64,000 nt of DNA from Candidatus Gottesmanbacteria bacterium RIFCSPLOWO2_01_FULL_43_11b (GTDB taxonomy: Bacteria; Patescibacteriota; Microgenomatia; UBA10105; UBA927): assembly GCA_001780985.1 (NCBI GenBank), contig MFJV01000001.1, positions 300,049-364,048 on the forward strand. The letters run 5' to 3'. Positions 323 through 34,658 of this stretch are shown here, piece by piece (the first letter of the stretch is position 1; each line of letters starts with the position of its first letter). The notes under the pieces were generated by a model. The model ran no database searches. It was not told where the DNA came from and worked only from the letters and a program-made list of their open reading frames with translations. The translations under genes and the position numbers were made by a program.

Positions 323-970
323 ATGCGTGAAAACTACTCTTTATTTCTTTTATTACCCTACTCACTTTTATCACTAAAGAGAACTCAAGTACATCATTTC
401 CCTCTTGACACCTTTATTAATAATGGTTTTACTGGATATATGGTTAATAAATTTCAAACGAATGCGTCTAATGTGCCGTATTATCTGAATAATCTGGAAA
501 TGTTATTTACCGATTTTTTACAGCAGGCGGGATCATCGGAAAAAACGCGGAAAAACTACAAAAGTGACGCGAATCATTTCTTAGGCTGGTTTATTTTCAA
601 ACTTGAATCCGCGGATCGTCTCCCTCATTCGCATATTGAATTCGTTCAGCGCATCACTCCGCGGTTCGTTGAGCAATATAAAACTTTTTTGCTAGTAAAC
701 AATATTCCAACAGCAACAATCAATCGCAGGCTCTCAACCATTCGAAGTTTTTTCAATTTCTGTCAAACACAAAAGTGGATTTCAGACAGCCCTGCTAAGA
801 ATCTTGCCACTGTTCGATCAAAAAAATTAGAACAGTCACGTTCCCAGGAAGACATACTTTCGTCATTTGCGCGGGATCTCAAAATGGAGGGTGCTTCAAG
901 GGCGACAATAAAAAATTACGTAAGCGACGTCCGGCTTTTTCTCCGTTGGAAAGATATTTATGCCGTTTAA
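323..970 (+). CDS. Protein of tandem phage-integrase-type N-terminal SAM-like (core-binding) repeats with no catalytic recombinase domain; probably joined by a +1 frame junction to the giant gene that follows
   Basis: 215-aa [29 protein letters not shown] ... [12 protein letters not shown] forms one complete core-binding-type helix bundle. A second N-terminal half follows ([28 protein letters not shown]). No R..HxxR..Y catalytic motifs. The stop overlaps the ATG of the 960 ORF, whose first 45 aa are a third copy of the same motif. Confidence 0.55.
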
Positions 971-3900
971 ACCTGCCAATCTCACCCAATACGAAGAACA
1001 CCTTGCTGACCAAGGATACTCTCCTGCAACAATTGCGCGAAAAAAAGCCTCTGTAGGTAAATTTCAACAGTGGGCTGATTCGCGGGAAACGATTACGATA
1101 CCGGCTGAAAACGAACACCCACGGAAAAGTCGCGCATGGATGTATGGAGTTTTGTTAGCACTTGGTGGTATTGGATTGCTAACCATGATCGTCATAGTAC
1201 TGTTGAATCAACAAAGCCGGGTAGCCCCAGCAATTACCAGCCGTGCAGTTGTTGTTGAACCAACACCTGGCACTCGGCCTACCCCGACTGCTACTCCTAC
1301 CCCAGAGGTAAGCACGGTTGCAAAATCTCAAGAGATCCCCTCATCTCAAGCATATACGATCAGCGGAGAGACTGTTACTATCACTACTTCCCCATTTAGC
1401 AACGGCGACATAACGCTCGCACCCGATGGTCAGGGACAGTTCCTCATTCGATCGAGTACAAGCACAGAGAATTCCGTAGATGTTCGCAATGCCAATTTAA
1501 CAACCGGTGCCCTTCTCTACGGGAATGTAGGTAACAGCAATCTTGGGTATGATTTCCTGCGCTTTACCAACGGCCCGGATGAAAAACTCCACTTCTCGGT
1601 CGATGCCTCCGGCAATACCTATATCGGAGGAAATGCAACGATTGAAAATATCCTGCTTGTCGATGAATTAAAGACTAAAGATGCCTCAGCCATACAGCTG
1701 GACAATGCCATCACGTTTAAAGATGCCGGTACGATATCAACAACCAATGGTAATTTGAATCTCCAACCCTCTGGAGTCGTGAATATTCCGGTAATTATCC
1801 AAAATCTCTCAACAAGTAACAGTGGGAGGGTGCAAATCAACGATGATTTACAAATCTATGGATCAGAATGGATTTCAGGGGGGTTAGATGTCAATGGTCG
1901 TACAATTCTCAACAGCAGCCTTCTCATTAAAAATGGTTATGGGCTGCCTGGGTTTGAATTTACTCTTGCCGGCGATGCGACAATTTCCGGAAGTCTTTCT
2001 CTTGCCCCGAACGTGCCGGGTTACGTTGGCACATGCGATTCAAGTAAAGCAGGACTGATCTATTATGATGGAGTTGTAAATATTCTGTACTATTGTAATG
2101 GAACAACATGGGTTTCTGCTGAAAGCGGTGTGGGCGGTCCCACCGGTGCGACTGGGGCGACTGGGGCAACGGGAGCCACCGGAGCGACAGGAACGGCTGG
2201 AGCTTCCGGCCCAACGGGTGCTACCGGAGCGACAGGCGGAGCTGGTCCGACTGGGAGCACCGGAGCAACGGGGGGTGCTGGTGCTTCTGGACCGACCGGG
2301 TCAACTGGTGCAACCGGTGGAGCCGGTATAGGTGGAGCAACGGGGAGCACAGGCTCTACGGGAACAGATGGACCAACCGGACCAACCGGGGCGACAGGGT
2401 CTGCTGGACCAACGGGAGCGACCGGAGCGACAGGAGATGGCGGTCCGACGGGATCCACGGGTGCAACCGGAGCAGATGGACCGACGGGTGCAACAGGCGC
2501 AACCGGAGCTACCGGTACTGCTGGAGCTTCTGGTCCAACCGGAGCGACCGGGCCAACAGGAGGTCCCGGTATTGGAGGGGCTACAGGAAGTACAGGTTCC
2601 ACAGGAGTTGAAGGGCCCACCGGAAGCACGGGGGCGACGGGAGCGAATGGACCCACAGGAAGTACCGGCCCCACTGGGTCAAATGGACCAACGGGGGCGA
2701 CGGGGGCCACGGGTGCAGCCGGAAGCGATGGGCCAACGGGAAGTACGGGGGCCACCGGAGGCGGGGGGCCAACCGGACCAACGGGAACAACCGGTGCTAA
2801 CGGACCAACCGGAAGTACAGGGCCGACGGGGGCCAATGGACCAACGGGAAGTACGGGGGCGACGGGAGCAACGGGAACGGTGGGAGCAAGTGGGCCGACC
2901 GGAAGTACAGGAGCAACAGGGGCTAGTGGGCCGACCGGAAGTACAGGAGCAACAGGAGCTAATGGACCGACGGGATCTACTGGTGCTACAGGCGCAACAG
3001 GGACCGCAGGTGCTTCCGGACCGACGGGAAGTACAGGTGCAACCGGTGGTAACGGACCCACTGGATCGACCGGACCGACGGGATCTGCCGGACCAACCGG
3101 AGCGACTGGTGCGACGGGGGCCACGGGCACTGCTGGTGCGAGTGGACCAACAGGGGCGACTGGGGCAACTGGTTCTAATGGACCAACGGGAAGCACAGGA
3201 ACTACCGGATCAAATGGTCCTACTGGAGCCACAGGCGCAACGGGAGCTACTGGTGCGGCAGGTGCTTCCGGTCCTACAGGAGCAACCGGGTCAACGGGAG
3301 GAGATGGTCCGACGGGAAGTACCGGTGCAACAGGAACAAATGGACCCACCGGTGCAACCGGAGCCACAGGCGCAACAGGTGCAACCGGCGCAAATGGGCC
3401 CACTGGGGCAACCGGAGCGACGGGCGCAACCGGAGCGACGGGAACCGCCGGCGCTTCCGGACCTACCGGCGCAACAGGAGCAACCGGCGCAACGGGAGCA
3501 ACCGGAGACAACGGTCCCACGGGAAGTACCGGCGCAACAGGTGCAACCGGAGGGGATGGTCCGACAGGTCCCACCGGGACAACGGGGGCTAATGGGCCGA
3601 CCGGTGCAACGGGTGCAACGGGTGCAACGGGTGCAAATGGGCCAACAGGATCGACAGGGGCAACTGGCGCAACAGGAACAGATGGGCCGACAGGATCAAC
3701 GGGTGCAACAGGAACGGGTGGCCTCGGTGGTGCAACGGGGGCAACGGGAGGAACAGGAGTTGCTGGTTCTTCCGGACCGACCGGGGCAACTGGCGCAACC
3801 GGGGGAACTGGCGCAACCGGGGTACAGGGACCGACAGGTACGACTGGTTCAACGGGAACAACGGGAGCAAACGGCCCAACTGGGATGACTGGGGCTACCG

Positions 3901-6900
3901 GCGAACGTGGTGCCGCGGGTGAAAATCTCTTTGATCAAACGAATAATCTTATTTACCCCTACCCTGTCGTCAATCGCAGTATTGCTTTGGGAAGCGACAT
4001 ATTTTCTCCCGCCGATGATCCGTCAACAACATCAACTGCGAGTGCCCTTATCATGCTCAATGGCGATAATGGACAGATCTGGGGAGCAGATACTACGATA
4101 GGAAAAAACATCCGGACCGACCTACGAGCACTTAGTAACGTCACCGATGTGTTCGTCTATGATACAAGCAAAGACTCCGACGCCGGATTATGGAGAAATG
4201 ATGATCGGGGCAAAGCAACAAGCTGGTACAACGAAACCATTGATAACCCGGCCGCCACCTGTGTCGTGGATACCGACGATCGCTGTGGCAACAGAGAGTT
4301 TCCAGCCAAAGCCATTATCGTCGTAACTACTACCAAAATGTATATATATGATGCATACGATAACACGCTGTGGATGGATTTCCGCAAAGGCGCGACCACG
4401 ATCGAGCAAATGATCGGGCCGACCGATAATTCCACAGGTTCCAGTGTCTGGGCGTTAAACGGCAAGATTTACTATGCAAATAACGGCTCGGTCGGAGGTC
4501 TCTATGTCATCGATCTTCTCAACGACCGTGCCTACAAATACGACGCCACTAATGATTACGTCGGCGACAAAACCGTGGGAACCAGAAATTCGACGGTCAC
4601 CTGGACGGCCGGACCATCATCACCCATCGTGAATGCAACGATCAATGATATCATGGCACGGGTCATCGGTGGAGACACATACGCTGTCGTAGGAACCGAT
4701 GCAGGTATGTCCGTCATTAACGAAACCGACCGCGCGGTCTTTGATTATGACGATGAGGTGGGAACGGCAGATAACGACTACAATAGCGTCTGGCTCGACC
4801 GTGATGGTAATCTCTGGGACCTCAACGAAACTGCGGGGCAGCTCGATAAATGGACAAACGTCATTGCTGACTCTGCCGATGAAAATCCCGGTAATCCGGA
4901 TACCGTCTGGGACGAATCCTCTACCCCGGCGCTTTTTGACAGCGCGCAAACGATAAACGTGGCACCTTCTGCCCTCACCGTCCGTGAGGGGACGAGTACG
5001 GTGGACGGAAAATCTCCGACCGTTTACGTCGGCCACAATGGCGGACTCACGGCGCTTTCTACCAAGGCAGATGATGAAACCAACGGCTCGGTCAAATATT
5101 ACACCAACTCATATATTACCGAAGAAATGATAGGAGATATCCGCGGCATGTGGCCTTTATACGGCAGTGGTTCCATTGCCGACGGAACCAACAATATCGA
5201 CGATGCCTCAGTCAAATCCGAAGAGCTCACCGCCAAAAATGCCAACGGCACAGGTCTTGCCTACGCCACAGGAGTACGGGGAACGGGAATAAGTTTTGAC
5301 GGAACCGACGATTATCTCTGTTCCGACACGAATGATGACGACACCTGCGACGACACAGCAAATCTTGAATTCGGCGCATCACCCACATTCTCCTACGGGA
5401 CATGGTTCAATGTTAATTCCTCCGGAGGGAATGAATGCGCCGTCAGTGATAAAAATGGGTGTGTAAACTCGACGGCCGGCTACTCCGTGTATAAGGATAC
5501 CACGGACAAGATTGTATGCCGCATCGCAGACGGAAGCAACGCCGCAACGGCCACAACCGTCGGGACACATGCCGACAGCCTTTGGCACCAGGTAACCTGT
5601 ACCGTGGATGGATCAAACATCCGAATCTACATCGATGGGATTCTTGACGCGACATCAAGTATTGCAACCGTGACTGGCTCAACCAACAACACATTACCAT
5701 TTATTATTGGGGGTCAGGGGTCACCAACCACCAATTTTTTCTCGGGATCTATTGACGATGTTTTCGTTACGGCGGAAGCTCTCACTCCGGGTCAGATCAG
5801 AAACCTATACCAAGTTGGCTACCGCGCTTCGCAAAACCATACAGCAGGACGAATTACAAATATCGGAGCGGATGATTATCAGCATCTTTTGGGAAATGCC
5901 TCCGGCGGCACCTCAACCAGTAGCCGTGTGTTTTCTGCCGCAGTCGATGATAGCAATCAATTTATTTATGCCGGAATCAACTCAAGCGGCGATAACACCG
6001 GTGGAGTGACGGTGCTTGGAATTGACAGCGACAGTGCTCTTGATCTTTATGACACAACGGCAAATACCAGTAAAGACGACGATATCGGTACGCAGTTTAA
6101 CGCCAGCGATGCGCTTGCGATATCTGTAGCTGGTGCTCCGTGCCCTGCGTACAACGGCGGCACGACCGCCTGCAACAATAGTGCCACCCTCGCAATCGCC
6201 GGAACTGACGATACGAACTATCGAGTCTGGATGGAGACGTCGGAAATATCACTGTATAACGCGCTTTCTCTTATCAGTAGTCCGTCACTCACGAAAAACA
6301 ATATGACCGTCAACAACATATTCACGATCTACAATACCTATAACAATCTGGATCAATCATCTACAGGAGAAACGATCCAAACCCCGGCGCTTTCCGTCGA
6401 CAGCAACGGGAACCTCGTCTACAACTATCTCGGCACATCAACAAGCGCAACAGCCATGGACTTCAACGATTCCGTACTCACTACAGGAACCATGCTTGAT
6501 CTAACTTCCACGACGCTCACGACGGGAGATGCGCTCAAAATTACCACAAACGCCCTCACGAGCGGCAATGCGCTCGATATTTCCTCAACGAGCACGGCCA
6601 TGACGGGCGATTTGGCGGCGATTACGCTTTCCGGAAGTAACGCTGCCAACACCGGCTCGCTTCTTTCTCTCACTAATAGTGGTACAGCTAATACCGGGGA
6701 GACTCTCTATATCAAACACTATGCTACCGGTACAAATAATCTCGCGATGCGCGTAGACGATGTAAGTAGCGATACGTCACCCTTTGTCATAGACGGCGCA
6801 GGCAACGTCGGCATCGGCCAGTCGGCGCCAGTCAGTCAACTTTATATTGGAAACAATGCCGACAGCTGGACCGATGCGTCCAACTCCCAGGTGACCATAG

Positions 6901-9900
6901 AAGGCGTTGATAATGAAACGACAGTCAAAGCGTTTTCGGTGAAAGATGAAAATGCAAACGAGTACTTCTTCCTTAGCTCCGTTGCCGGCTCTAACAACGG
7001 AATAGCATATTTCAAAGGCAATGTTGGCATTGGCGATACTGGTCCGGATTATCATCTGGAAATCAGCGATACCACCGATACTCCGGTTCTGGCCCTTTCT
7101 GATGATGATATCGCCCAGGGATTCACCACAGATGTAGCAGAGACAGACGTGTTTGCTCACCTTACCTCCCTCTCCACAACTGCAGGAGGAGTCCAGTTCA
7201 CTGCGCTTTCCGATACTGACGCTCAAGCCCTTTCCATCAAGGCCGGTATTGGATCTGCAACCCCTACGGATACGACGCCCGCGATCAAGTTTATCGGTGG
7301 TAAATTAAGTGGTACGACATTCGGCGATCTTGACGTCACCTCTGCAATCACGTCAACTACCGCAGAAACGGTCTTCCAAATTGCCAACAACAATGACACT
7401 GCGGGATTTACTATGTTGGGGAATGGAAATATAGCTATTGGTAATAATGTAAGCCCTTTGGGAAAACTGGTTATTACTTCAAATCCCTTAGGGTCCGACT
7501 ACACAACCGGCCACGCGGCACTCATCGTCGACCAATTTGAAACCCAGGATATTATCGCCGCATCCGCCTCTGGAGTACTTCGCTTCAAAGTAGAAAGCGA
7601 CGGAGATGTTGTTTCGCAACGGTTTATGGATTCGGCAGACAATACTTACCTCATAGATCCGGCGAACGCCAGCACGGCTCTTACCCTAGCAGGAAGTGCC
7701 GGAATCGGCGACACCACACCCGATTATCTTTTGGAATTATATGACGCAACCGCCACACCCGCGTTTGCTCTTTCCGATGATGATATCGGCCATGGGGTTA
7801 CTACCCTGGTCCAAACAGACGTCTTTGGGCATCTGTCCTCGGTCTCCTCGTCCGACGGGGGCCTACAAGTAACCGGACTGGCCGACGCTACGGGAATAGC
7901 GTTGGGGCTCAAAGGGGTTCAGTCTTCCAATCCGACAGACACAACACCTGCAATTTCACTCATCGGAACCAAAGCCAATGGCACGGGGGTTCAGGATTTG
8001 GATTCTGCAGAAACCGTGCTCCAAATAGCCAACAACGATAATACCGCAGCCCTGACAGTTCTAGGAAATGATTATGTCGGAATCGGGACAACCACCCCGT
8101 CAACCCCGCTTGAAGTTGCAATTAATAACGCCACCAATAACGACATTACCAATCTTTTAACCCTGACCCACACCACCTCCGGAACTGCCACAGGTGGCCT
8201 TGATGCTGTCCTTCTCCATATGGACGGAGATGATGCTTCAACGACTTTTACTGACGAATCAGGCAAAACATGGACAGCCAACGCCAATGCCCAGATTGAC
8301 ACGGCTCAAAGCAAGTTCGGCGGAGCATCGGGTTTATTTGACGGCACCGGTGATTACATTAACACCGCAGATCATGACGACTTTTATCTCGGCAGCAGAG
8401 ACTGGACCTTTGATTTCTGGATAAGACATGTATCAAATGCCACAGATGAATATATCTTTACTCAATATGCAGATGCCAACAATTATTTCTACATCCTGGC
8501 AAATGGAGGGGGAAATACGCTAGCTATCGTACAGGCAGATTCAAGCACAACCAGATGGTCATTCACAGCCCCGTGGAATCCGACAAACGCCACCTGGTAT
8601 CATGTCGCAATCGAAAGAGAAGGAAACACTCCAAGAATATTCATAGGCGGTGTAGCTCAAACTGTTACCGAGGTAACCACAATTGCCGGAAAAACGGCGG
8701 CTGACATTGCCGCAAGCCCAAGAATCGGGATAAACGGGGTGGGCAGCGCAGGTCTTAACGGCTGGCTGGATGATTTCAGGTTTACCAACGGCACTGCCCG
8801 CTGGAGCAGCAACTTCACCCCGCCGGCAAGCGCAGTCACCTATCAAGGGGGAACAGTCACCGGAATAGGGACAGGTCTTCTTTTCAGGACGGAAGATTCG
8901 GCCGGCAATACGGAAAACGCCGGCAGGATATATTCTGCTCTAAATAAAACCACCGACGGAGAGGAGACGTCCCAAATGACTTTTGAGACAAGAACCGGCG
9001 GAGCGGCTCTAACTCCCGCGATGAGACTTAACGGAATCGGGAATCTAACCCTAAAAGGTTCGCTAATTCAATCCAGCACACCGGATATTGCCGAAAATGT
9101 GATTGTGACTGACCCGACGGTTGAGGCGGGAGATATCGTGGTAATTGATCCGTCCTATCAACCGCCGGAGGGGGCCAATATTTATAACCGCTTTGCCGCC
9201 AAAAAGGCCGAGACACCCTATTCGCAGCAGCTTCTGGGAGTAATTTCGCAGGACCCGGGAATTATTCTTAATGCCCCTGAAGACGCGGTTGATACCGGCG
9301 AGCAAAGTGCTGCCAACGAGCGGCCTTTGGCTATTGCCGGCCGTGTTCCGGTCAGGGTTTCCACAATTAACGGCAATATTAAAAATGGCGACGCCATTAC
9401 CGCCTCGATGATTCCCGGAGTCGGGATGAAGGCAACCGGCGAAGGCAATATCGTAGGCCGCGCTCTGCAGGCATTTAGCTGTGAATCTCCCGATACTCCC
9501 TGCGAGGGCAAAATCCTTGTCCTTGTGTCCACTTCCTGGCATAAACCCAAAATTTTTGAAGAGGGCGGGATAATAACCACGATCATCCAGGACGCCCAAA
9601 CTTTGGTGTATCAGGTGGTGCAAACGACGGCCGAGGGCATTGACCGGATCGCCGAGGAGATTGGAGTTTACGCCAATTTAATCGCGGCAAACATTAACGC
9701 GGGACTGATTGAAACAAAAGAACTCAAAACCGATACTCTCTCTCCCATTGCTTCGGATAGCGCAGGGATCGCCGTACGCCTAGGGCCGGAACAAACGTTT
9801 ACCATCACCGACAGAGAAGGCACTCCGTCTGCACGCTTTGACAACTTGGGGAACGCTACATTCTCTGGTGAACTAACTGCGAGTGAAGCAAGTATTTCCG

Positions 9901-10658
9901 GCAATTTATATGCTGACCGTGTTCAGACTTCGTTTGGAGATTTAGATGCTCGGCTGATTGGTCTCGAAGCGTCAATTTCAGCTATTGGTTACATTGCTCC
10001 ACCTGATGAGTCAACAAGTTTAGCAACCAATGTTCCTGACCTCACCGTCGCCAATAATCTAACCGTCTACGGACAGACGAGTTTAGGCCCCGTAAGTGTT
10101 GCCGGATCTCTCCTTGTTGATGGCGTCATACAGTTGTCGCAGCAGGGAATCGACTTTCTCGGTGACACGTTAGATTTTCTCAGCGGCGTTCTTCGCCTAA
10201 GTGCAAACAGAATTGAAGTCGGCGCGCCCATTGCTCCCATTCCAGGCCAAGATCTCACGATAGATCTCGAAAAACCGTCATCCGGCTTCGGCACGCTTCT
10301 CGTCAAAGGAAATGTTTACACTGAGGGCAATATCGCTGCCCGAAGTGCCACTGTCTCGGGCGAACTCACCACCCGAAAGCTCATTATAGCTAACGATCAA
10401 GCCTCACCAAGTGCGGAACTATCTGAAATTTCAAGTAACGCGACAGTCGGAGTCGGCACAATACAAGCTGAATCACTCGAAGTAACTATTCCCACTACTG
10501 CAGTAACAGATTCATCATACATCTATATCACACCGACAACTTCTACAAATAACCAAGTACTATATGTAAAGTACAAGATCGCCGGAAGCGGATTCGTTGT
10601 CGGATTTGATCAAATTGTTCCTGCTGATGTGGAGTTTAACTGGTGGGTGATTAATTAA
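960..10658 (+). CDS. Giant membrane-anchored surface protein (3232 aa) with N-terminal SAM-like segment, signal-anchor TM helix, Thr/Pro linker, collagen-like Gly-X-Y region, two LamG/ConA-like lectin domains and tail-fibre-like repeat modules
   Basis: Uninterrupted 9.7-kb ORF. TM helix [23 protein letters not shown] at ~1138-1210. [10 protein letters not shown] linker. About 200 GXY triplets. LamG motifs ([22 protein letters not shown] ... [21 protein letters not shown]; [10 protein letters not shown] ... [20 protein letters not shown] ... [15 protein letters not shown]). Repeated NVGIG(D/Q)(T/S)xP modules. Confidence 0.85.
2130..3920 (+). repeat. Collagen-like Gly-X-Y triplet repeat (about 200 triplets, mostly GPTG(A/S)TGATG) inside the giant gene, highly repetitive at DNA level
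   Basis: Continuous G-x-y periodicity from ...[14 protein letters not shown] to ...[14 protein letters not shown]. Reverse-strand Pro/Val/Ala-rich ORF 2090..3574 and +-strand ORFs 2098..2331 and 2332..3888 are frame shadows of this repeat. Confidence 0.85.
6780..8110 (+). repeat. Three tandem, diverged ~100-150-aa tail-fibre-like modules within the giant protein
   Basis: Module starts [17 protein letters not shown]..., [48 protein letters not shown]..., [47 protein letters not shown].... Each ends in ...QIANN(N/D)(D/N)TA(G/A)(F/L)T(M/V)LGN. Confidence 0.5.
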
Positions 10659-11100: not shown

Positions 11101-11580
11101 TTAATCCGCACACAATTTATATTCCCCGGGGGTAGGGGTGGGATATCCGCAGCGGGCTTGGCTCGCTCCGATATCTGCGTCTGAGGCGTTCTCAAGAACA
11201 ACTTTTGCCAGAAAATCATCTGTATCAGTCGGTTTAAGAGGATGCCGGTTATACAAATACTCGACCGGTAGATTTTTCATGTACACGGTCTCTCCGCCCG
11301 ACGGCCCTGCTTGAAAAGGACCTGTCTGGGAACAGGCTGACGTCCCCGTAGTCCCACAGCCATTGATGAGAGTGCCTGTGCCGCTCGGGTAACTATTAAA
11401 GTCATTGTAATAGAGCCGAAGAGCACTTTTGAGCTCCCGCAGTTCCGCTTTTCTCTTGGCATCTTTAGCCCGCTGTCTGGCTCCAAGAAAATTTGGAAGT
11501 GCTACACCCACGAGGGCGGCAATAATCGTTATGACAACCAGAAGTTCGATAAGTGAAAAACCTTTCTTACTATTTTTCAT
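11101..11580 (-). CDS. Type IV pilin / pseudopilin-like protein with class III (prepilin peptidase) signal peptide
   Basis: MKNSKKG|FSLIELLVVITIIAALVGVALP. G-1/F+1/E+5 motif and hydrophobic N-terminal helix. Confidence 0.75.
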   Translation of the reverse strand: MKNSKKGFSLIELLVVITIIAALVGVALPNFLGARQRAKDAKRKAELRELKSALRLYYNDFNSYPSGTGTLINGCGTTGTSACSQTGPFQAGPSGGETVYMKNLPVEYLYNRHPLKPTDTDDFLAKVVLENASDADIGASQARCGYPTPTPGEYKLCAD

Positions 11581-12122
11581 GGATCGTTTATGAGTGTTCT
11601 TCCTGTATTTGGTGTTGTATTGGTACTACTCCTTCCATAATTACACAATTTTGTCCCGCAGTACAGGTTTTGGTACGCTTGGGGCGTACTGCCGCTTTTT
11701 TGTACATCTGCATCATCGGTATTTTCCAATCGTGCATAGAGCTGGTAGGAATTATTTCCACCACCGACATCATAATAGTACGAGTGAATTGCAATTGGAT
11801 CTTCGGGAAGTTCTACCATGTAGATCGTGTTGTTTTGATCTTTAAATTCCTCTCCCCATTCGCATACTGTTGCCCCGGCTGACCCGCACGCAGTAATCTT
11901 ACCTCCGCTATTATCATTCGGGTATTTACCGGTGTCGTTAAAATAAAGCTCGAGAGCAGAAGTAACATTTTTTATATCCGTTTTCCTTCGGCTATCACGG
12001 CTTTTGGTTTGGGATGATCGGAATGTCCCAAGTCCGAGGGTAATGAGTATCGCCAAAATCAGAATGACGACGATTAACTCTATGAGTGTAAATCCGCGCG
12101 ATTTCAAAAGTTTATTATTCAT
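11577..12122 (-). CDS. Type IV pilin-like protein (start trimmed to the internal Met; the long upstream extension is judged spurious)
   Basis: MNNKLLKSRG|FTLIELIVVILILAILITLGL prepilin motif. ATGA overlap with the downstream pilin gene. The upstream 96 codons of the track ORF (11577..12410) are Ala/Arg-rich and overlap the neighbouring gene. Confidence 0.7.
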   Translation of the reverse strand: MNNKLLKSRGFTLIELIVVILILAILITLGLGTFRSSQTKSRDSRRKTDIKNVTSALELYFNDTGKYPNDNSGGKITACGSAGATVCEWGEEFKDQNNTIYMVELPEDPIAIHSYYYDVGGGNNSYQLYARLENTDDADVQKSGSTPQAYQNLYCGTKLCNYGRSSTNTTPNTGRTLINDP

Positions 12123-12156
12123 AGTTGTTAGTTGTTCGTTGTTTAGTTGTCGGTTA
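12123..12156 (+). repeat. GTTGT-type heptamer array (agttgtt agttgtt cgttgtt tagttgt cggttat) in the 34-nt gap between two pilin genes, directly upstream of start 12122 on the minus strand
   Basis: Same motif family as the arrays at 10657..10705 and 11056..11096. Confidence 0.6.
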
Positions 12157-12882
12157 TTATGGGCACCAGTTGTCTGGATTCCTGCAAGCCTCGACACAGG
12201 TAGCGACATCGTCAAAAGACGCCGGACAGCCACTCTGCTGCGGGTTAGTGTACGTATTGCAGTCACCTCCCGGCGTGCAAGCCAAACTCCCATAATACCC
12301 ACTCGCCGGCGTTGGCGTTGGGCCGCCGCCGCCATCACCACCACCGTCACCACCCGGTGTGGGCGTTGGCGTTGGGCCGCCGCCGCCATCACCACCACCG
12401 CCAGGAACAAACCCTTCTGCTACAACCGAAACACCTACCGAATTACAAAAATTGTATCCCTCCCCCCACCCACATCCCTCGACGGGGTCACAGCCAAGCG
12501 AGGTAATGGCAGGATCGCTCGTGTCTTTGAGGGAAGCGCAGGCGCGGTACCCCAAACAGGGATTTGCTTCCGGCACGTATAAATAGGGCTGTTTCGTAGA
12601 GGGGTCACAAGGAATTTTATCAAGGTATGGAACCAGTGTTGCTGCGCCGCAACTATCGAGAATTCCAGAGTCGGGGTAACACCCCTTGTCATTGTAGTAC
12701 TCTTCAAATGCAGTACGTATTGCATTAAGGTCGCTTTTTCGCTTCGCATCATAGCCCCTATCAATTTGTCGTTTCCAGTTAAAAAGGGCAACGACGGTAA
12801 ACAGAACCAGGATAATCGCAATTGCGATCAGGAGTTCTGCCATCGTCCACCCCTGCCTGCCGGCAGGCTGGCCTTCTTTCAT
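12157..12882 (-). CDS. Type IV pilin-like protein with Gly/Asp and Pro/Thr low-complexity repeats (start trimmed to Met16 of the track ORF 12157..12927)
   Basis: MKEGQPAGRQG|WTMAELLIAIAIILVLFTVVALF with E+5. Internal GGGGDGGGGPTPTPTPGGDGGGDGGGGPTPTP. Confidence 0.65.
   Translation of the reverse strand: MKEGQPAGRQGWTMAELLIAIAIILVLFTVVALFNWKRQIDRGYDAKRKSDLNAIRTAFEEYYNDKGCYPDSGILDSCGAATLVPYLDKIPCDPSTKQPYLYVPEANPCLGYRACASLKDTSDPAITSLGCDPVEGCGWGEGYNFCNSVGVSVVAEGFVPGGGGDGGGGPTPTPTPGGDGGGDGGGGPTPTPASGYYGSLACTPGGDCNTYTNPQQSGCPASFDDVATCVEACRNPDNWCP
12308..12402 (+). repeat. Direct tandem duplication (~54 nt unit, 1.75 copies) inside the pilin-like gene, encoding GGGG(D)GGGGPTPTPTP
   Basis: ggcgttggcgttgggccgccgccgccatcaccaccaccg occurs twice in tandem. 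Confidence 0.7.
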
Positions 12883-15842: not shown

Positions 15843-16052
15843 ATGCCGCTTGTTTGGGATTATCCGAAAGCTAAACTCACGAGATCCCGCCGCGGTTCCG
15901 TACTACTTCTTGAGCGATTGATTAATTTTGGACCGGGAAAAGGAGAAAAAATTCACCTGCGGAAAGTAAAAGAACACTGGGGGGCCCTCCGCTTGTTTCC
16001 GAACAAACGGCGGCTCATGGAGCTTTTCTTATGGGGAAAGCCACAATCTTAA
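15843..16052 (+). CDS. Small hypothetical protein directly upstream of and overlapping an AbiEii toxin gene; possibly a truncated or remnant AbiEi-type antitoxin
   Basis: 69 aa. Overlaps 16031 ORF by 22 nt. No confident family match from sequence alone. Confidence 0.3.
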   Translation: MPLVWDYPKAKLTRSRRGSVLLLERLINFGPGKGEKIHLRKVKEHWGALRLFPNKRRLMELFLWGKPQS

Positions 16053-16693
16053 CACCGAGACAAACTGAGCTCATACGGGCACTTTGCGCAGACACATTTT
16101 TCACCGACACGTTTTATTTTACCGGAGGAACTGCGCTTTCAGAGGTGTATCTCAAGCATCGCAAAAGCGAAGATCTGGATTTTTTTTCCGCCCGCACGTA
16201 TGATCCCCAACGAATTCTCCACGCGTTAACGCGGTGGTCCAAAACACAAAGATTTTCTATCAAAACGGACTTTGTCGAGCCTACGCATATCTACGTGCTG
16301 ACATACCCCGATGGCCACGCTGTCAAAGTGGACTTTGCTACATATCCCTACCCAAGCCTCGATACGCCAAGCCGGTATCGGGATACCTTGTCCGTGGACA
16401 GCCTGTTTGATATTGCCGTCAACAAACTCGTAACCATTACCCAACGCACGGAGGTGAAAGATTTTGTAGATCTTTATTTTCTATTCCGGCAGTTTACATT
16501 TTGGACCCTCCGGGACGGCGTTAAAACCAAATTTAATATCGAGATAGATCCATATGGAGTTGCCTCAAATTTCATGGCTGTAGAAGACTTTGATTTCCTT
16601 CCGATCATGCATACCCCATTGACCCTACAGGCGCTCAAAATGTTTTTCCGGACCAAGGCAAAAGATCTGGGGAAAAAGAGCATCGCCCCTTGA
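16031..16693 (+). CDS. abiEii: AbiEii / AbiGii-family nucleotidyltransferase toxin (type IV TA system, DUF1814)
   Basis: FYFTGGTALSEVYLKHRKSEDLDFFS matches the GGTAL...RxSxDLDF nucleotidyltransferase signature of the family. Confidence 0.75.
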   Translation: MGKATILTPRQTELIRALCADTFFTDTFYFTGGTALSEVYLKHRKSEDLDFFSARTYDPQRILHALTRWSKTQRFSIKTDFVEPTHIYVLTYPDGHAVKVDFATYPYPSLDTPSRYRDTLSVDSLFDIAVNKLVTITQRTEVKDFVDLYFLFRQFTFWTLRDGVKTKFNIEIDPYGVASNFMAVEDFDFLPIMHTPLTLQALKMFFRTKAKDLGKKSIAP

Positions 16694-17263: not shown

Positions 17264-18009
17264 TACTTCCGTATCCCAAAGACGCGCTCCATAAAGCCAT
17301 GCTCTACCGGCTCCTCATTGGTCTGTTGGATGCCAAAGATGTGGCAAGAGAGATATTTTTCAAAGGCGGTACCTGTGCTGCTATGCTTGAGTGGCTGGAT
17401 CGGTTCTCCATCGATTTGGACTTTGATCTTTCCCGAAATGCAGACAGGCCCAAGCTGAAACGGCTCCTGAAACGTATATTTAACGCCAATGGATTTCGTG
17501 TTGCCGAAGAAGCCAAAAACGAGCTCTATTTTATTCTGAAATACCAAGCACCACCGGGTACACGAAATAACTTGAAGCTGAGCATTATTGATCTTCCGGT
17601 TCGCGCGAATGTGTACCAGCCACAGTATCTTTCGGATATCGCGCGTTTCGCTGTGTGCCAAACCGTCGAAACCATGTTTGCCAATAAACTCATCGCTGTC
17701 ACCGACCGGTTTAAGAAATATCACACCATCGCTGGAAGAGACATTTATGATATACACTATTTTTTTACCCAAGGATATGGATATAATCAGGAAGTTATTA
17801 CGGAGAGGACGGGAGTGTCGCCAGCCGTATATCTACGTGAGCTTAGCGAATTTATCCGTCAAAAAATAACGGAAAGAATTATTAGTGAGGACCTGAGTTA
17901 CCTCCTGCCGCCTACAAAATTTCAAGTGGCGCGGCGCACACTAAAATCAGAAGTCCTTATCTTTCTTCAGTCCGCAAAATCCCACGCGCCGTTGATACAA
18001 CAAGCCTAA
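17260..18009 (+). CDS. abiEii: AbiEii-family nucleotidyltransferase toxin (start at the internal Met overlapping the AbiEi stop)
   Basis: FFKGGTCAAMLEWLDRFSIDLDFD signature. ATGA overlap with 16727..17263. Confidence 0.75.
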   Translation: MILPYPKDALHKAMLYRLLIGLLDAKDVAREIFFKGGTCAAMLEWLDRFSIDLDFDLSRNADRPKLKRLLKRIFNANGFRVAEEAKNELYFILKYQAPPGTRNNLKLSIIDLPVRANVYQPQYLSDIARFAVCQTVETMFANKLIAVTDRFKKYHTIAGRDIYDIHYFFTQGYGYNQEVITERTGVSPAVYLRELSEFIRQKITERIISEDLSYLLPPTKFQVARRTLKSEVLIFLQSAKSHAPLIQQA

Positions 18010-19102
18010 CGTCCGACTTTGTTAAATCCGGATAAATAGGAAGACGAACGAGTGTCGCCGCAACATCATCGGTCACTGGCAGTTTCCTTTTGTTCCCCCC
18101 AAGCTTTTTTCCCATCGGAGAGCTATGTAAAGGAACAAAATGCGTGCTCACCTCTATTCCCTTTTTTCGCATACCCACAACAAACATTTTTCGATGAGTT
18201 GGATTTTTGAATTTTATTGCGTAAATATGCCAGTTTGGATTTGTCATACCTTTTGGAATACCGGGTAGTTGGATAAAATCACTATATTTATGTAGTTCTT
18301 TTGTATAAAAAGATGCAATACGAGTTCTTTTTTTATTTATGTAATTAATTTGATCAAGTTGTACATTAGCTAATGCTGCAAGAAGATCAGAGAGAAGGTA
18401 ACTACTCCCCTCGCCCACCCAGCGGTAAATCGGCACTTTTCCTGCTAAAAACGCTTGCCGGTCGGTTCCAACTGCGCGGAATATTTCCAGTTTATCGGCA
18501 AGTTTTCTATCATTGGTAACCATTGCTCCTCCCTCTCCTGTTGCTACATTTTTTGTGCCGTGGAAAGAAAATGCGCCGGCATTGCCGAATGTTCCCAGAT
18601 GTCTTCCTTTATAATACGAACCTATACAATGGGCTGCATCTTCAATGATCCAAAGTCTATGAGCACGTGCAAGTTTCAAAAGTTTTTCAAAATTCTCCGA
18701 TGCAAATCCACCATAATGTTCCGTGATGATACCAACGGTTCGCTTTGTAATTACCTTTGCCACATCTATTGGATCTAAACAATACGTTATTGGATCAATG
18801 TCAGCAAAAACCGGTTTGGCGCCCCGGATCATTACTGCTGTTGCAGTTGAGGATAGAGTAAAACTTGGAACAATAACCTCATCGCCGGTTTTTGCCCCCA
18901 GACAGGCGACAGTGGCTTCCATTGCGTGGGTTGCTGATGTTGCCGGCATGGCAAATTTTGCACCGGTAATCCTTTTTAATTTCTCCCGCATTCGGACACT
19001 TTCGGGGCCATCTGCAACACCGGTTCCGGTCCTCATTGCTTTAACAATTGCCCGCTCTGCGGATATTCCCCAATATGGTTTATGAAGTGGAATACGTGTC
19101 AT
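17957..19102 (-). CDS. DegT/DnrJ/EryC1/StrS-family PLP-dependent sugar aminotransferase (WbpE/ArnB/PseC-like)
   Basis: 381 aa. FSFHGTKNVATGEGGAMV (PLP-lysine region). DAAHCIGSYYKG. Confidence 0.9.
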   Translation of the reverse strand: MTRIPLHKPYWGISAERAIVKAMRTGTGVADGPESVRMREKLKRITGAKFAMPATSATHAMEATVACLGAKTGDEVIVPSFTLSSTATAVMIRGAKPVFADIDPITYCLDPIDVAKVITKRTVGIITEHYGGFASENFEKLLKLARAHRLWIIEDAAHCIGSYYKGRHLGTFGNAGAFSFHGTKNVATGEGGAMVTNDRKLADKLEIFRAVGTDRQAFLAGKVPIYRWVGEGSSYLLSDLLAALANVQLDQINYINKKRTRIASFYTKELHKYSDFIQLPGIPKGMTNPNWHIYAIKFKNPTHRKMFVVGMRKKGIEVSTHFVPLHSSPMGKKLGGNKRKLPVTDDVAATLVRLPIYPDLTKSDVRLVVSTARGILRTEER

Positions 19103-19152
19103 AAGCTCAAGTACTCTTGCAAATTATACCTTCTTCCTGTAAGGTTGTCTCG

Positions 19153-20160
19153 ATGACACGCATAGGGCTTATCGGATATGGGTACTGGGGACCAAATCTG
19201 GCGAGAAACTTTAGCGCACACCCGAATGTACAGCTTACATGGATTTGCGACATGCGTAAACATGTACTCTCAAAACTGCCGCTCCTCTACCCAATGACCA
19301 AAACCACAACCCGCGCATCCGATGTTTTTTCAGATCCCGATACCGATGCGGTCGTCGTCGCAACACCGATTTCTACACATGTACCCCTCGCCAGAGCGGC
19401 ACTACGAGCTCGCAAGCACGTACTTGTTGAAAAACCGCTTGCTCCAACCGGAAAAGATGCAAAAATGCTGGTAACACTTGCACGAAAGAAAAGAAAAATC
19501 CTCATGGTTGATCATACATATATCTACACTCCGGCAGTACAGAAAATAAAAGAGATTATCGCCTCCGGAGAACTTGGGAAAGTATTTTTCATAGACTCTG
19601 TTCGAACCAATTTAGGACTTGTTCAAGCCGATAGTAATGTTATCTTCGATCTTGCAACACATGATTTTGCTATTTTGGATTTTCTTTTTGGCAAAAATCC
19701 GACAGTTGTTTCTGCAACCGGATTTTCAGTGGGCGGAACACGTGAAGAGGCAGTTGCATACGTCTCAGCTCGATATGGTAAGGAGCTCTTCCTCCACACA
19801 CATGTCAGCTGGCTATACCCGATAAAGATTCGTACCATGATATTTGTCGGTACGAAAAAAATGCTGGTATTTGATGATGTGGAGCCTTCAGAAAAAATTA
19901 AAATTTACGATAAAGGAATATCAGTAAGTCTTGACCCGAAAAACCGCTACCAAATGCGTGTAGGTTACAGAACAGGCTCTGTTGTTTCTCCCCACCTCCC
20001 TCTCACAGAGGCTCTCTCCGGTATGGCAAAAGAATTTATTCGTGCAATTGAAAAAAACAGGAAACCGACCACCGATGGCACAAGCGGTACGAATGTCGTC
20101 TCTGCAATCGAAGCTGCAACCAAATCTCTTCGTACTGGCGGCAAACACATCCGATTATGA
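19153..20160 (+). CDS. Gfo/Idh/MocA-family NAD-dependent sugar oxidoreductase (WbpB-like UDP-sugar 3-dehydrogenase candidate)
   Basis: MTRIGLIGYGYWGPNLARNF Rossmann N-terminus. Start trimmed to Met13 of the track ORF 19117..20160. Divergent from the aminotransferase gene. Confidence 0.85.
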   Translation: MTRIGLIGYGYWGPNLARNFSAHPNVQLTWICDMRKHVLSKLPLLYPMTKTTTRASDVFSDPDTDAVVVATPISTHVPLARAALRARKHVLVEKPLAPTGKDAKMLVTLARKKRKILMVDHTYIYTPAVQKIKEIIASGELGKVFFIDSVRTNLGLVQADSNVIFDLATHDFAILDFLFGKNPTVVSATGFSVGGTREEAVAYVSARYGKELFLHTHVSWLYPIKIRTMIFVGTKKMLVFDDVEPSEKIKIYDKGISVSLDPKNRYQMRVGYRTGSVVSPHLPLTEALSGMAKEFIRAIEKNRKPTTDGTSGTNVVSAIEAATKSLRTGGKHIRL

Positions 20161-21104
20161 AACTATCCGGACGGAAAATTCTCATTACCGGTGGTGCCGG
20201 ATTTATAGGTTCTCACCTCTCCGAGACTTTGGCAAAAAACAACCGAGTTGTAGTTTATGACAATTTTTCCTCTTCAGTGATTTCTTCAAAAGATATCCCT
20301 GGTGTCCGGTTTATTCGGGGAGATATTCTTGATGAAAAAAAATTGATAAGAGCTATGCGGGGTGTTGATGTGGTGTTTCATCTTGCTGTTGCCTGTGTCC
20401 GCCTATCGCTTTCAGAGGTACAACACGTCCACGAAGTCAATAGCACCGGAACGCTCACCACTCTCCTTTCGGCAACCAAATCGCATGTGAAGCGATTTAT
20501 CTATATTTCCTCAAGCGAGGTTTACGGTGGCACCGACAAATCTAAAATCTCCGAGAATCATCCGATTAAACCTACGACAGTTTATGGCATTAGCAAATAT
20601 CAGGGCGAGCTCTACACAAAACTTCTTCCTTCTATTATTATCCGCCCGTTTAATGCCTATGGTCCGCGGAGTCACTTTGAGGGCGTGTACGGCGAAGTTA
20701 TCCCCCGCTTCGTCATTCGAACGCTTGCAGGGTTACCGCCAATAATATTTGGCGACGGAAAACAAACGAGAGATTTTACCTACGTTTCCGACACGGTATC
20801 CGGCATCATAAAAGCTGCGCAGTCAGATAAACTCCTAGGATCTGTCATAAATATTGCCTATGGGAGGGAAATTTCCATTCGTAGGACTGCCTCAATTATT
20901 TCACCGCTTAAACCTATTCATAGAGCTGCTCGGCCGCTCGATGTCCATAGGCTTGCGGCAGATATCCGTTTGGCTAAAAAAATGATCGGGTATAAACCAC
21001 GTATTGCAATTGACGAAGGACTTGCCCGCTACATTTCTTGGGTGAAAAAAACAGTGCCGAACCCTAAAAAATTACTTTCCAAAATTCCTGACACTAATTG
21101 GTAA
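20157..21104 (+). CDS. NAD-dependent epimerase/dehydratase (extended SDR; UDP-sugar 4-epimerase-like)
   Basis: ILITGGAGFIGSHL glycine motif. YGISKYQGE (YxxxK). ATGA overlap with the upstream gene. Confidence 0.85.
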   Translation: MKLSGRKILITGGAGFIGSHLSETLAKNNRVVVYDNFSSSVISSKDIPGVRFIRGDILDEKKLIRAMRGVDVVFHLAVACVRLSLSEVQHVHEVNSTGTLTTLLSATKSHVKRFIYISSSEVYGGTDKSKISENHPIKPTTVYGISKYQGELYTKLLPSIIIRPFNAYGPRSHFEGVYGEVIPRFVIRTLAGLPPIIFGDGKQTRDFTYVSDTVSGIIKAAQSDKLLGSVINIAYGREISIRRTASIISPLKPIHRAARPLDVHRLAADIRLAKKMIGYKPRIAIDEGLARYISWVKKTVPNPKKLLSKIPDTNW

Positions 21105-21957
21105 GAGCCAGATCAACTGCTTGTCTCCATGTTTTAAAACGAATTCCTAATAGTTTTTGTGTTTTTTTTACGTCTAACGTATTGTGTTTATGAAATCGTA
21201 GTGGTATATCAGACGATCTCATAAGACTATCTATTGATCTTTTCTGTATCGATTTATCACCAATAATGTGCTGTGCAAGATCATACGGAGTCACCCAGTC
21301 GGGGTTGGTAACATGGAAAATACCTTGTTTTGGTTTCTTTATTAGTTTCTCTATTGCTTTTGCTATGTCATCAATCCAGGTTAATTGTATCCGTTGATCC
21401 GTAAACATAGGATAGAGTTTGCCGCGGCGATACAAAGCAGGAGTTGCGTGCACGTAATCGTTTGCAACACGGATTCCACTTTTTTTGATTGGGTGTGCCA
21501 CCCGTAAAACTGCTCCTTTAACATGCTGTTCTGCTCGTGATTTCGTCCAACCATACCAAGAATTGTTTCGAAGAGGTGTTACAGAGTGACTTTCGGAGTA
21601 TGGTCCGGGGTCTTTTGTACTTCCTCGAAATACTGATCCTGTTGAAATGTAAATGAGATAACACCTTGCGGATTTGGCAGCCTTGGCAATATATTTTGTG
21701 CCCTCGACATTTACCCTCCAATACTTACCTTCTTTATCTCCCCTTTCCCGCTCTGCTTCATTCAAATCAATAAGTGCTGCAGCGTGAATTATCACATCAG
21801 GTTTGTGTTTTTTAAAATACGCAAAAACTGCCCTTTTATCTGTAATATCCAATTTTTTATGGGAAGGAACTAGAACCGTATAGTTATTTTTGAGAATCTC
21901 TGCAATCCGCGATCCAACCAGCCCGCTTCCGCCGCTAACAAGAACTGTTTTAGCCAT
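21094..21957 (-). CDS. SDR-family sugar-nucleotide reductase (RmlD / dTDP-4-dehydrorhamnose reductase-like substrate-binding domain)
   Basis: MAKTVLVSGGSGLVGSRI. YGWTKSRAE (YxxxK). Start trimmed to Met11 of the track ORF 21094..21987. Confidence 0.7.
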   Translation of the reverse strand: MAKTVLVSGGSGLVGSRIAEILKNNYTVLVPSHKKLDITDKRAVFAYFKKHKPDVIIHAAALIDLNEAERERGDKEGKYWRVNVEGTKYIAKAAKSARCYLIYISTGSVFRGSTKDPGPYSESHSVTPLRNNSWYGWTKSRAEQHVKGAVLRVAHPIKKSGIRVANDYVHATPALYRRGKLYPMFTDQRIQLTWIDDIAKAIEKLIKKPKQGIFHVTNPDWVTPYDLAQHIIGDKSIQKRSIDSLMRSSDIPLRFHKHNTLDVKKTQKLLGIRFKTWRQAVDLALTN

Positions 21958-22891: not shown

Positions 22892-23430
22892 GATCGAATA
22901 GTTTTTATCACCCTCGCGGGGATTCCGGCAACCAACGTTTTGTCAGCAACATTTTTCACGACGACCGATCCGGCCCCCACGACACACTCCCGGCCAATGG
23001 TGACACCAGGCAGTATTATAACGCCTGTTGCGATGAAGGCGCCGCGTTTGATGGTAACCGACCGCTCCTTTGTCGGATATATTCTTTGCAAAGGGTGGTC
23101 CGGGTAGCCAACATTGATATGGGAGACAATCGTTGTGCGATTTGAGATTGTCACATCATCTTCAAGTTTCACGCCACCTCTGGTGTCTACCATTACTTCA
23201 TCGCCAATAAAGCATCGGCTGCCGATAGCAACCCGGGAAAACCCGTAGTGGTAAAGATTGGTAAAACGAATGTTCTGGACGACCGTGTCGTTGCCAATAC
23301 TCGCCCCGGCAAGTCGCAGCATCATAACGCGAATCTGCGGCACAACGCATACAGAAAGGAGTCCGCCAAAAAGCTCCCAAAGAACAAAACGAGTGGCTTT
23401 CATAATACCGACGGTTCGTATGGCTTTCAT
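22888..23430 (-). CDS. Left-handed beta-helix (hexapeptide-repeat) acetyl/acyltransferase, WcaF-like
   Basis: Hexapeptide repeats VAIGSRCFIGDEVMV...VKLEDDVTISNRTTIV...IKRGAFIATGVIILPGVTIGRECVVGAGSVV. Confidence 0.7.
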   Translation of the reverse strand: MKAIRTVGIMKATRFVLWELFGGLLSVCVVPQIRVMMLRLAGASIGNDTVVQNIRFTNLYHYGFSRVAIGSRCFIGDEVMVDTRGGVKLEDDVTISNRTTIVSHINVGYPDHPLQRIYPTKERSVTIKRGAFIATGVIILPGVTIGRECVVGAGSVVVKNVADKTLVAGIPARVIKTIRS

Positions 23431-27149: not shown

Positions 27150-27173
27150 AGGAGAATTATAATACAAACACGT

Positions 27174-34626: not shown

Positions 34627-34658
34627 ACACTATTTGATATAATGCTTCCGATTGATAT

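Follow-up and report, generated by a model that had tools for sequence, protein, structure and literature searches.

A threonine-rich collagen-like run of 200 triplets in a giant, putatively membrane-anchored fibre protein of a Gottesmanbacteria genome

Introduction

What kind of protein carries a collagen-like run of about 600 residues in a member of the Patescibacteria, and what might such a run do there? We address this question for a 64,000-nt stretch of contig MFJV01000001.1 (positions 300,049 to 364,048 of the forward strand; assembly GCA_001780985.1, Candidatus Gottesmanbacteria bacterium RIFCSPLOWO2_01_FULL_43_11b), referred to below as the window, in which an initial inspection of the letters alone (the sequence-only reading) had noticed a long Gly-X-Y repeat. 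The repeat lies in the open reading frame (ORF) 960..10658, which encodes a giant protein of 3,232 residues; as we argue below, this protein is probably one chain of a homotrimeric fibre held in the cell membrane, with the collagen-like run as its stalk.

Cells of the Patescibacteria, or candidate phyla radiation (CPR), typically measure 200-300 nm. The members in culture grow epibiotically on host cells, for which they require several adhesins, and the filaments seen on Patescibacteria by cryo-electron tomography have so far been attributed to type IV pili. No account of a collagen-like protein from Patescibacteria/CPR turned up in a literature search, whose hits were noise from work on microbiomes and collagen.

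Results

A collagen-like run in register over 600 residues

The repeat occupies 2127..3926 on the forward strand and consists of exactly 200 uninterrupted Gly-X-Y triplets (residues 390-989 of the ORF), the sole run of such kind in a six-frame check of the window. It scores 216.8 bits with the Pfam Collagen profile PF01391 (cut-off 27.2; E=2.2e-65), which upholds both the region of some 600 residues and 200 triplets described in the sequence-only reading and the profile check that it had suggested. The X position (n=200) is Ala in 87 triplets, Pro in 45 (22.5%), Ser in 31, Thr in 15 and Gly in 10, while Y is Thr in 143 (71.5%), Asn in 15, Ala in 14, Ser in 10, Gly in 7 and Pro in 1. The earlier description of Pro in X and mostly Thr in Y is thus accurate, and the pattern is a known one for bacterial collagens: the literature gives, for all bacteria, Pro at 19% of X and Thr at 31.6% of Y, with Thr dominating Y and TGA and TGP triplets over-represented.

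The GIGG and GLGG motifs that had been called breaks are present, but they stay in register (GIG-GAT), so that Gly is kept at every third residue, and they are breaks only under the convention of PMC11923368, by which Gly in X or Y counts as a 'G2G interruption'; 16 of the 200 triplets (8.0%) carry such a Gly, 10 in X and 7 in Y. Contiguous Gly register, profile score and Pro-X/Thr-Y bias together place the run among PF01391-type bacterial collagen-like proteins. Its 600 residues include 46 Pro (7.7%), 158 Thr (26%) and 12 charged residues (2%), and a composition count found no Lys, Cys or aromatic residue among them. The collagen triple helix rises by 0.286 nm per residue, and at this rise the run would, if triple-helical, be about 172 nm long.

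Domain order of the giant protein

The features of the protein are listed below, with the evidence for each in brackets:

960..10658, +, giant ORF of 3,232 residues, predicted collagen-stalked surface fibre protein (ORF, PF01391)
1134..1205, +, single N-terminal transmembrane anchor, residues 59-82, preceded by a basic stretch PRKSR (Kyte-Doolittle 19-residue mean 2.87)
1212..2126, +, Pro/Thr linker and pre-collagen domain of about 300 residues, predicted extracellular, ending in a conserved two-Cys loop at 2034..2111 (sequence; also in the orthologue L005)
2127..3926, +, collagen-like region, 200 Gly-X-Y triplets, 600 residues (frame scan, PF01391)
3927..3998, +, junction, the 24 residues directly C-terminal of the collagen run, containing LFDQTNN (conserved among 15 junctions)
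4116..5105, +, beta-propeller-like domain, residues ~1053-1382, with the motif FVYDTSxDxDGGxW...SWYNET (AlphaFold2, Foldseek)
5367..5798, +, first LamG (concanavalin-A-like lectin) domain, residues 1470-1613 (Pfam PF13385, E=1.8e-29)
8202..8846, +, second LamG-like domain, approximately residues 2415-2629 (second PF13385 stretch; PHROG matches)
10440..10655, +, C-terminal beta-sandwich of 72 residues ending in NWWVIN (AlphaFold2, pLDDT 96-98)

There is one N-terminal hydrophobic anchor and the remainder of the chain is predicted to be extracellular, in keeping with the earlier assignment to a bacterial surface protein; the anchor would be oriented with its N-terminus in and its C-terminus out. 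The two-Cys loop sits just before the first Gly-X-Y triplet, and the pre-collagen domain that it closes has no sequence match in Pfam, PDB or NCBIfam. Searches of the non-collagen parts gave no match in NCBIfam, and the PDB sequence search returned none for residues 1-389 and 2181-3232 and only a marginal neurexin LamG match. Structure prediction was more informative: the propeller domain was modelled with a pTM of 0.68 and a core pLDDT of ~85-93, and its top Foldseek matches in the PDB are beta-propellers. The second LamG-like region is the sole part of the protein matched by PHROG, with matches to phage structural proteins over residues ~2417-2629, and long repeat-rich stretches come after the LamG domains. 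For the C-terminal sandwich, the best PDB folds come from the C-terminal ends of trimeric tailspikes and tail fibres: the Pam1 tailspike (7eea; E=2e-3, rmsd 2.3 A) leads, with K64-1 depolymerase, R2 pyocin fibre and AP22 tail fibre as further neighbours.

Stalks of graded length in related loci

To find relatives we searched with the collagen part deleted from the query, so that matches reflect true homology. This search returned 24 proteins, mostly unnamed, the named ones being 'Candidatus Microgenomates' and 'Candidatus Levyibacteriota', and a profile of the post-collagen domain detected 44 loci in GTDB species genomes, with Gottesmanbacteria, Patescibacteria group, Parcubacteria, Saccharibacteria and Moraniibacteriota as informative titles. 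'Patescibacteria group' also appears among the named relatives of the DegT aminotransferase encoded downstream of the fibre gene. Judged by these matches, the host lineage of the family is probably CPR/Patescibacteria.

In fifteen related loci or paralogues, the same junction is immediately preceded by a collagen run. Both the junction and the last triplets are conserved, the run ending in GERGAAGEN or in a sequence of the type G(L/Q)(M/I)GANGE(N/V). The stalks themselves differ widely in length, as follows (a lower bound is given where the assembly is gapped or ends within the repeat):

72 and 79 triplets: two paralogues in L017, ungapped
118 triplets: L005, ungapped; the closest orthologue of the same architecture
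130 triplets: L022, ungapped
231 triplets: L019, two runs of 108 + 123 with 2 residues between them; no N gap
298 triplets: L128, no Ns
321 triplets: second gene of L012, no Ns
377 uninterrupted triplets: P0124, a further family member
at least 124 triplets: L015, contig ends in the repeat
at least 282 triplets: L011, N gap
at least 297 triplets: L014, N gap
at least 298 triplets: L007, N gaps
at least 345 triplets: L012, N gap
at least 350 triplets: L013, N gap
at least 397 triplets: L016, N gaps

The family range is 72 to at least 397 triplets, with the 200 of the window in the middle, and the predicted span at the same rise per residue is ~62 to more than 340 nm. Composition is conserved over this range, with Pro at 18-29% of X, Thr at 67-90% of Y and 1-3% of residues charged. 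Conservation of register and composition across the 15 loci while length varies is what would be expected under selection for helix packing, and not of a loose linker.

The sequence-only reading had expected length variation between strains and had suggested comparing repeat numbers among related genomes; that comparison places the variation between species, the closest orthologue of the same architecture having 118 triplets. No same-species copy spanning the repeat was found in the protein collection, the GTDB species genomes or the JGI metagenome contigs, where the best matches reach 60%, 70% and 59% identity, respectively. The claim that the run is long for a prokaryote holds only in part: it is longer than the usual model collagen-like proteins, but lies inside published ranges (Bcl collagen regions have 27-1,158 residues and bacterial collagen-like polypeptides reach ~6,000 residues) as well as in the middle of its own family. 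Human fibrillar collagen chains, for comparison, have ~330 triplets.

We note in passing that a second collagen-stalked gene on the same strand lies in tandem a few kb downstream in three of the loci: L012 (17528..20416, 321 triplets), L017 (16333..17043, 79 triplets) and L007 (18414..20234, ~201 triplets). In L012 and L017 this gene encodes a membrane anchor of its own and shares the junction motif, which makes the copies tandem paralogues, whereas the L007 copy is seen only as a collagen run.

Codon diversity of the repeat, and the stalk as an assembly break point

The repeat had been described as near-identical 9-nt DNA units prone to recombination, and neither part of this description survives closer inspection of the DNA. 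All four codons of each of Gly, Thr and Ala are used; there are 140 different 9-mers among the 200 read in frame, the commonest being seen 6 times; and the longest exact repeat in the tract has 32 nt (2889/2925). TRF reports short local arrays only, with periods of 18-90 nt that are all multiples of 9 and mostly 64-89% matches. Against a null model in which synonymous codons were permuted and the protein was held fixed, the real tract has a modest excess of repetition (longest repeat 32 versus 20 +/- 2.6; repeated 15-mers 66 versus 25), which suggests that blocks of the array were once duplicated in register, so lengthening it, and later diverged. Because the tract is so strongly codon-diversified, the length variation between species does not follow from near-identical DNA.

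Two further ORFs overlap the repeat, and the earlier view of them as shadows of it holds, although their strands differ: 2332..3888 lies on the forward and 2090..3574 on the reverse strand. Their translations are low-complexity strings rich in PVAPVAP or QEQ, and the alternative frames of the repeat are likewise open in the homologue L001. Such ORFs are by-products of the repeat, since the shifted frames of a (GGN-NCN-ACN)n sequence contain hardly any codons that begin with T.

In the public metagenome-assembled genomes (MAGs) of relatives, the stalk is a systematic break point: gaps of 100 Ns lie inside it in L007, L011, L012, L013 (= L001), L014 and L016, and the contigs of L002, L003 and L015 end within it. 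Since assemblies break in the stalk, several database proteins start right at the junction, and gene calls list the stalk as an ORF by itself. A DegT protein 100% identical to that of the window lies on a 2.6-kb ENA metagenome contig, which indicates that the same or a near-identical organism has been sampled elsewhere, in fragments only.

A family of giant fibre proteins with modules shared with phages

The C-terminal end of the protein has a far wider distribution than the collagen run. With a profile of the last 150 residues, a threshold of E<=1e-3 yields 3,886 cluster representatives and one of 1e-10 still 2,021; among the matches listed the sandwich lies at, or a few residues from, the C-terminus in all 150, in proteins of up to 6,346 residues. 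On this sequence evidence we define here a family, unnamed so far, of giant fibre proteins ending in an NWW(I/V)IN beta-sandwich, to which the window protein belongs. Collagen stalks occur in only 2 or 3 of 40 long family members inspected, and the collagen helix thus appears to be one of several alternative shaft modules in the family.

The beta-propeller links the protein to viruses, with 216 relatives on IMG/VR viral contigs. On one of these (L063) there are several tail-fibre and virion structural genes and the propeller gene itself matches a tail-fibre PHROG; another (L099) carries terminase, portal and scaffold genes, and has 10 Gly-X-Y triplets (9689..9778) just upstream of the propeller domain. 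This short run is the only collagen run adjoining the propeller in 80 viral loci (L048-L127). The presence of the propeller on phage contigs implies that the cellular fibres have modules in common with phage receptor-binding proteins.

A split SAM-like domain at the putative cytoplasmic end

The fibre gene is preceded by, and overlaps, a second ORF:

323..970, +, upstream ORF of 215 residues with phage-integrase-type SAM-like domains (Pfam PF02899, E=1e-13)

Pfam finds no recombinase catalytic domain in this ORF. It overlaps the fibre ORF (960..1140 region) by 11 nt (ATGCCGTTTAA), the fibre gene being in the +1 frame, and the C-terminus of its product together with the N-terminus of the giant ORF makes up one complete SAM-like domain: joined, they match PF02899 over positions 3-81 of 83 with 36.5 bits, and the corresponding junction in L005 scores 32.8 bits. 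L005, an orthologue with 61% identity, has the same split (ORFs 2757..3299 and 3292.., 8-nt overlap, +1 frame). We considered a sequencing frameshift at 960/970 and rejected it, since the same +1 overlap in L005 shows that the split is conserved and not a sequencing error. Translational coupling with complementation of the split domain, or a +1 frameshift, could explain the arrangement.

Most other family members have their SAM-like domains fused within one ORF, and the family falls into two sub-architectures. In most relatives a cytoplasmic region of 230-290 residues is followed by the membrane helix and, ~40 residues later, by the collagen run; the window protein and L005 have a short tail, the helix, an extra domain of 300 residues and then the collagen. 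The cytoplasmic region of the relatives consists of integrase-type SAM-like or of MerR/HTH_17 domains, two unrelated folds (the comparison of tail folds set P0010, P0018 and the second gene in L017 against P0005, P0007, P0012, P0019 and L013). That the module is always of a DNA-binding type while its fold is not conserved hints that DNA binding, or a shared partner, is selected in the tail. A further idea, which we regard as a long shot, is that the fibres are contact sensors besides tethers: a head derived from phage tail fibres, on a collagen stalk of 60 to more than 300 nm, would capture a host cell, and tension or release of the tail would signal to DNA or gene expression inside the ultra-small episymbiont. 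The length of the stalk would then set the capture radius.

Gene neighbourhood

Downstream of the fibre gene, domain searches identified the following features:

11101..11580, -, prepilin-like gene (N_methyl / T2SSG), directly downstream and convergent (Pfam)
11577..12410, -, prepilin-like gene (N_methyl / T2SSG), convergent (Pfam)
16031..16693, +, AbiEii-type nucleotidyltransferase toxin, of the type IV toxin-antitoxin or abortive infection kind, located after the prepilin-like pair and before the glycosylation cluster (domain match)
17957..19099, -, DegT aminotransferase (domain match)
17957..42192, strand not assigned, sugar-modification and glycosylation cluster (Pfam scans)

The prepilin pair is also present downstream in 8 distinct collagen-bearing loci (L013, which is on the same contig as L001/L002, and L003, L005, L011, L015, L016, L019 and L022), so that most relatives with a collagen run keep this synteny. 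The glycosylation cluster lies 7-31 kb downstream of the fibre gene. Its sugar part comprises DegT, a GFO/IDH oxidoreductase, an epimerase/dehydratase, an RmlD-like reductase, a hexapeptide acetyltransferase and several methyltransferases, and its transferases are four of glycosyltransferase family GT2, one of GT1/GT4 and three PMT_2 (GT-C) membrane glycosyltransferases, together with a YfhO-like protein. GT-C enzymes of the PMT type act on Ser and Thr of exported chains, and the cluster is a candidate source of Thr O-glycans on the stalk. Phage structural or replication genes were absent from the 30-odd neighbouring ORFs scanned.

Further along the window, 51120..52844 (+) encodes a 574-residue protein whose C-terminal part matches the NPCBM/NEW2 glycan-binding domain (E=4e-32); it is followed by an ORF of 745 residues with no Pfam match. 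A second giant ORF of 2,983 residues at 55035..63986 (-) has Pfam matches to LytR_cpsA_psr, Beta-lactamase2, GGDEF and a methyltransferase, and may represent fused or mis-joined functions. Scans for Rfam families and tRNAs yielded nothing in the window, which therefore offers no direct taxonomic marker.

Discussion

A proposed trimeric fibre

The reading that we favour, and consider probable, is that the collagen run serves as the stalk of a homotrimeric surface fibre that is anchored in the cell and in which a Thr-rich triple helix acts as a rigid spacer. A strict Gly register, kept over thousands of triplets across the family while length drifts, a conserved junction, a tailspike-like end and a single N-terminal anchor all point to such a fibre. 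Taken by itself, a trimeric collagen stalk is rather likely; a role in host adhesion, argued from analogy, comes close to an even call without quite reaching it.

Each chain would be held in the cytoplasmic membrane by its one N-terminal helix, with a short SAM-like tail in the cytoplasm. Outside the cell, the 300-residue base domain would be followed by the 200 triplets, winding with those of two sister chains into a triple helix of ~170 nm, and this rigid spacer would bear the ~2,240 distal residues of each chain, with the beta-propeller, the two LamG domains, the fibre repeats and the tailspike-like beta-sandwich. Folding may start on the C-terminal side, at the trimeric end domain and the conserved junction (a candidate nucleation or registration element), and zip towards the membrane; the conserved end of the collagen run and the next 24 residues fit nucleated folding from C to N, as described for collagens. 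The helix is poor in Pro (7.7%) and in charged residues (2%) and has no Lys, yet 26% of it is Thr; we therefore propose that hydration and O-glycosylation of Thr stabilise it, the latter possibly by the GT-C and GT2 enzymes encoded nearby. Thr glycosylation has itself been proposed as a substitute for hydroxyproline in bacterial collagens, and (Gly-Pro-Thr)10 needs glycosylated Thr in order to fold. The fibre would probably serve to keep heads that bind sugars or cells at a distance from the very small cell, as in reaching out to a host, and its length would evolve via in-register duplication and loss of blocks.

Alternative readings

Could the surface protein instead be monomeric, with the Gly-X-Thr tract as a flexible, heavily O-glycosylated spacer of the mucin type or as a polyproline-II/polyglycine-II bundle within one chain? 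The composition speaks for this: with so few Pro and charged residues and no Lys, the stalk is without the Lys-Glu/Asp clamps that the literature reports as general in collagens, and a (Gly-Pro-Thr)10 peptide folds only when its Thr is glycosylated and is otherwise a random coil. The domains that follow the stalk, a beta-propeller and LamG domains, are also normally monomeric folds. Yet Gly recurs at every third residue over 600 residues, and in relatives of conserved composition over up to 377 uninterrupted triplets, whereas a disordered linker needs no register and the protein's own Pro/Thr linker (residues 100-116) has none. The tract moreover has no turn motifs at which it could break into short polyproline-II strands, and the C-terminal domain resembles trimeric fibre ends, so that we consider a non-helical spacer unlikely. 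A collapsed or expanded repeat, with a real feature but a true stalk length other than 200 triplets, is a concern raised by the six gapped and three truncated stalks of relatives. The window, for its part, contains no N, the frame is intact over 1.8 kb and continuous with 389 residues upstream and 2,243 downstream, and ungapped relatives exist at 118, 231, 298, 321 and 377 triplets. Since exact repeats are short (at most 32 nt, well under usual read lengths, which makes unique placement of reads possible), gross misassembly is less likely, and we judge an artefactual count to be quite unlikely.

That the gene belongs to a prophage or phage, as a tail-fibre gene and not that of a cellular surface protein, is suggested by the 216 viral-contig relatives of the propeller (in L063 within a tail-fibre cluster), by the tailspike-like C-terminal fold and by the integrase-type SAM-like domain upstream; collagen-like phage tail fibres are, besides, known. 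The protein has an N-terminal membrane anchor, however, the SAM-like ORF has no recombinase catalytic domain, and the neighbours are pilins, a toxin-antitoxin component and glycosylation enzymes, with no phage structural or replication gene among them. The synteny with the two pilin genes is conserved across species, and a short collagen run stands beside the propeller in only one of 80 viral loci. Taken together, these points make it very improbable that this is a phage tail-fibre gene.

Several observations weigh against the homotrimeric fibre itself. Imino-acid and charge content is low relative to Scl2 and EPclA, collagens of proven stability, and the stalk is without the Pro and charge stabilisation of either; it falls instead in the Thr-rich class, whose proposed stabiliser is glycosylation. 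The trimer and the helix are predictions from sequence and from single-chain models; the tailspike fold matches are marginal, with no PDB fold match of the C-terminal sandwich at E<=0.001; and domains of the beta-propeller and LamG kinds mostly occur as monomers. The glycosylation genes lie apart from the fibre gene and are a candidate link only, while the adhesive role is argued solely by analogy. Finally, the lineage of the relatives is read from MAG labels, several of which are contradictory, and many of the 44 loci bear placeholders, such as 'uncultured Gammaproteobacteria', that we do not trust.

Comparison with known systems

By analogy, the protein would work most like BclA-type Thr-rich glycoprotein filaments and collagen-containing phage tail fibres. 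It shares a Thr-rich Gly-X-Thr region of widely varying length with BclA/Bcl of Bacillus and BclA1-3 of Clostridioides difficile, which form surface filaments with Thr-linked glycans thought to stabilise the helix and a trimeric C-terminal beta-sandwich. Unlike in Bcl, it is a membrane helix at the N-terminus, in place of an exosporium-targeting motif, that would hold the chain; where the Bcl C-terminal domain comes directly after the collagen, the window protein has ~2,240 residues of other domains; and the relatives are labelled as non-sporulating candidate-phyla lineages. A Pfam search matched none of the Bcl terminal domains in the window protein, and we rejected membership in the BclA/Bcl family on the differences in terminal domains, anchoring and context. 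With EPclA/EPclB, prophage tail fibres of enterohaemorrhagic Escherichia coli that are trimeric and have a C-terminal trimerisation domain, the protein has in common a collagen segment joined to phage tail-fibre modules, here the shared propeller and the tailspike-like end. Their collagen segments as described are short and rich in Pro and charge, whereas the 200 triplets of the window are Thr-rich and belong to a membrane-anchored protein in a cellular neighbourhood; membership among phage collagen-like tail fibres was rejected as well, as no phage structural genes occur among the ORFs scanned.

Streptococcal Scl1/Scl2 'lollipop' adhesins resemble the proposed fibre in being surface-anchored homotrimers with a collagen stalk and a globular head, but the stalks of Scl owe their stability to many charged residues, while that of the window is 2% charged and has no Lys. 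The fibre adhesins Pcl of Pasteuria are collagen-like surface proteins proposed to act in host attachment and host-parasite coevolution (PMC10987987); they come from an endospore-forming Daphnia parasite and are likened to the window fibre by description only. The comparisons with animal type II membrane collagens and class A scavenger receptors concern topology only and imply no homology, these proteins being built with hydroxyproline and coiled-coil nucleation. Their chains run from a short N-terminal part in the cytoplasm through a single transmembrane helix and a collagenous stalk to globular ligand-binding domains at the C-terminus. Scl, in turn, has its anchor at the C-terminus, a polarity opposite to that proposed for the window fibre.

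Significance

The repeat alone adds little, given that Thr-rich bacterial collagen-like proteins are well known. Both its composition and its length range have been described for such proteins, while the architecture and the lineage appear to be undescribed in the searchable literature. On the practical side, the stalk is a recurrent break point in MAG assembly that truncates gene calls. The family also offers natural helices of graded length that would be free of hydroxyproline and almost free of charge, and that could be used to test how Thr and its glycosylation stabilise collagen. Most of all, the locus defines a family of putatively membrane-anchored giant fibres, apparently of Patescibacteria/CPR, that unites phage tail-fibre modules with collagen stalks of a predicted ~60 to more than 340 nm. 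Such spans would be comparable to, or exceed, the 200-300 nm of the cells themselves, and the fibres are candidates for host capture.

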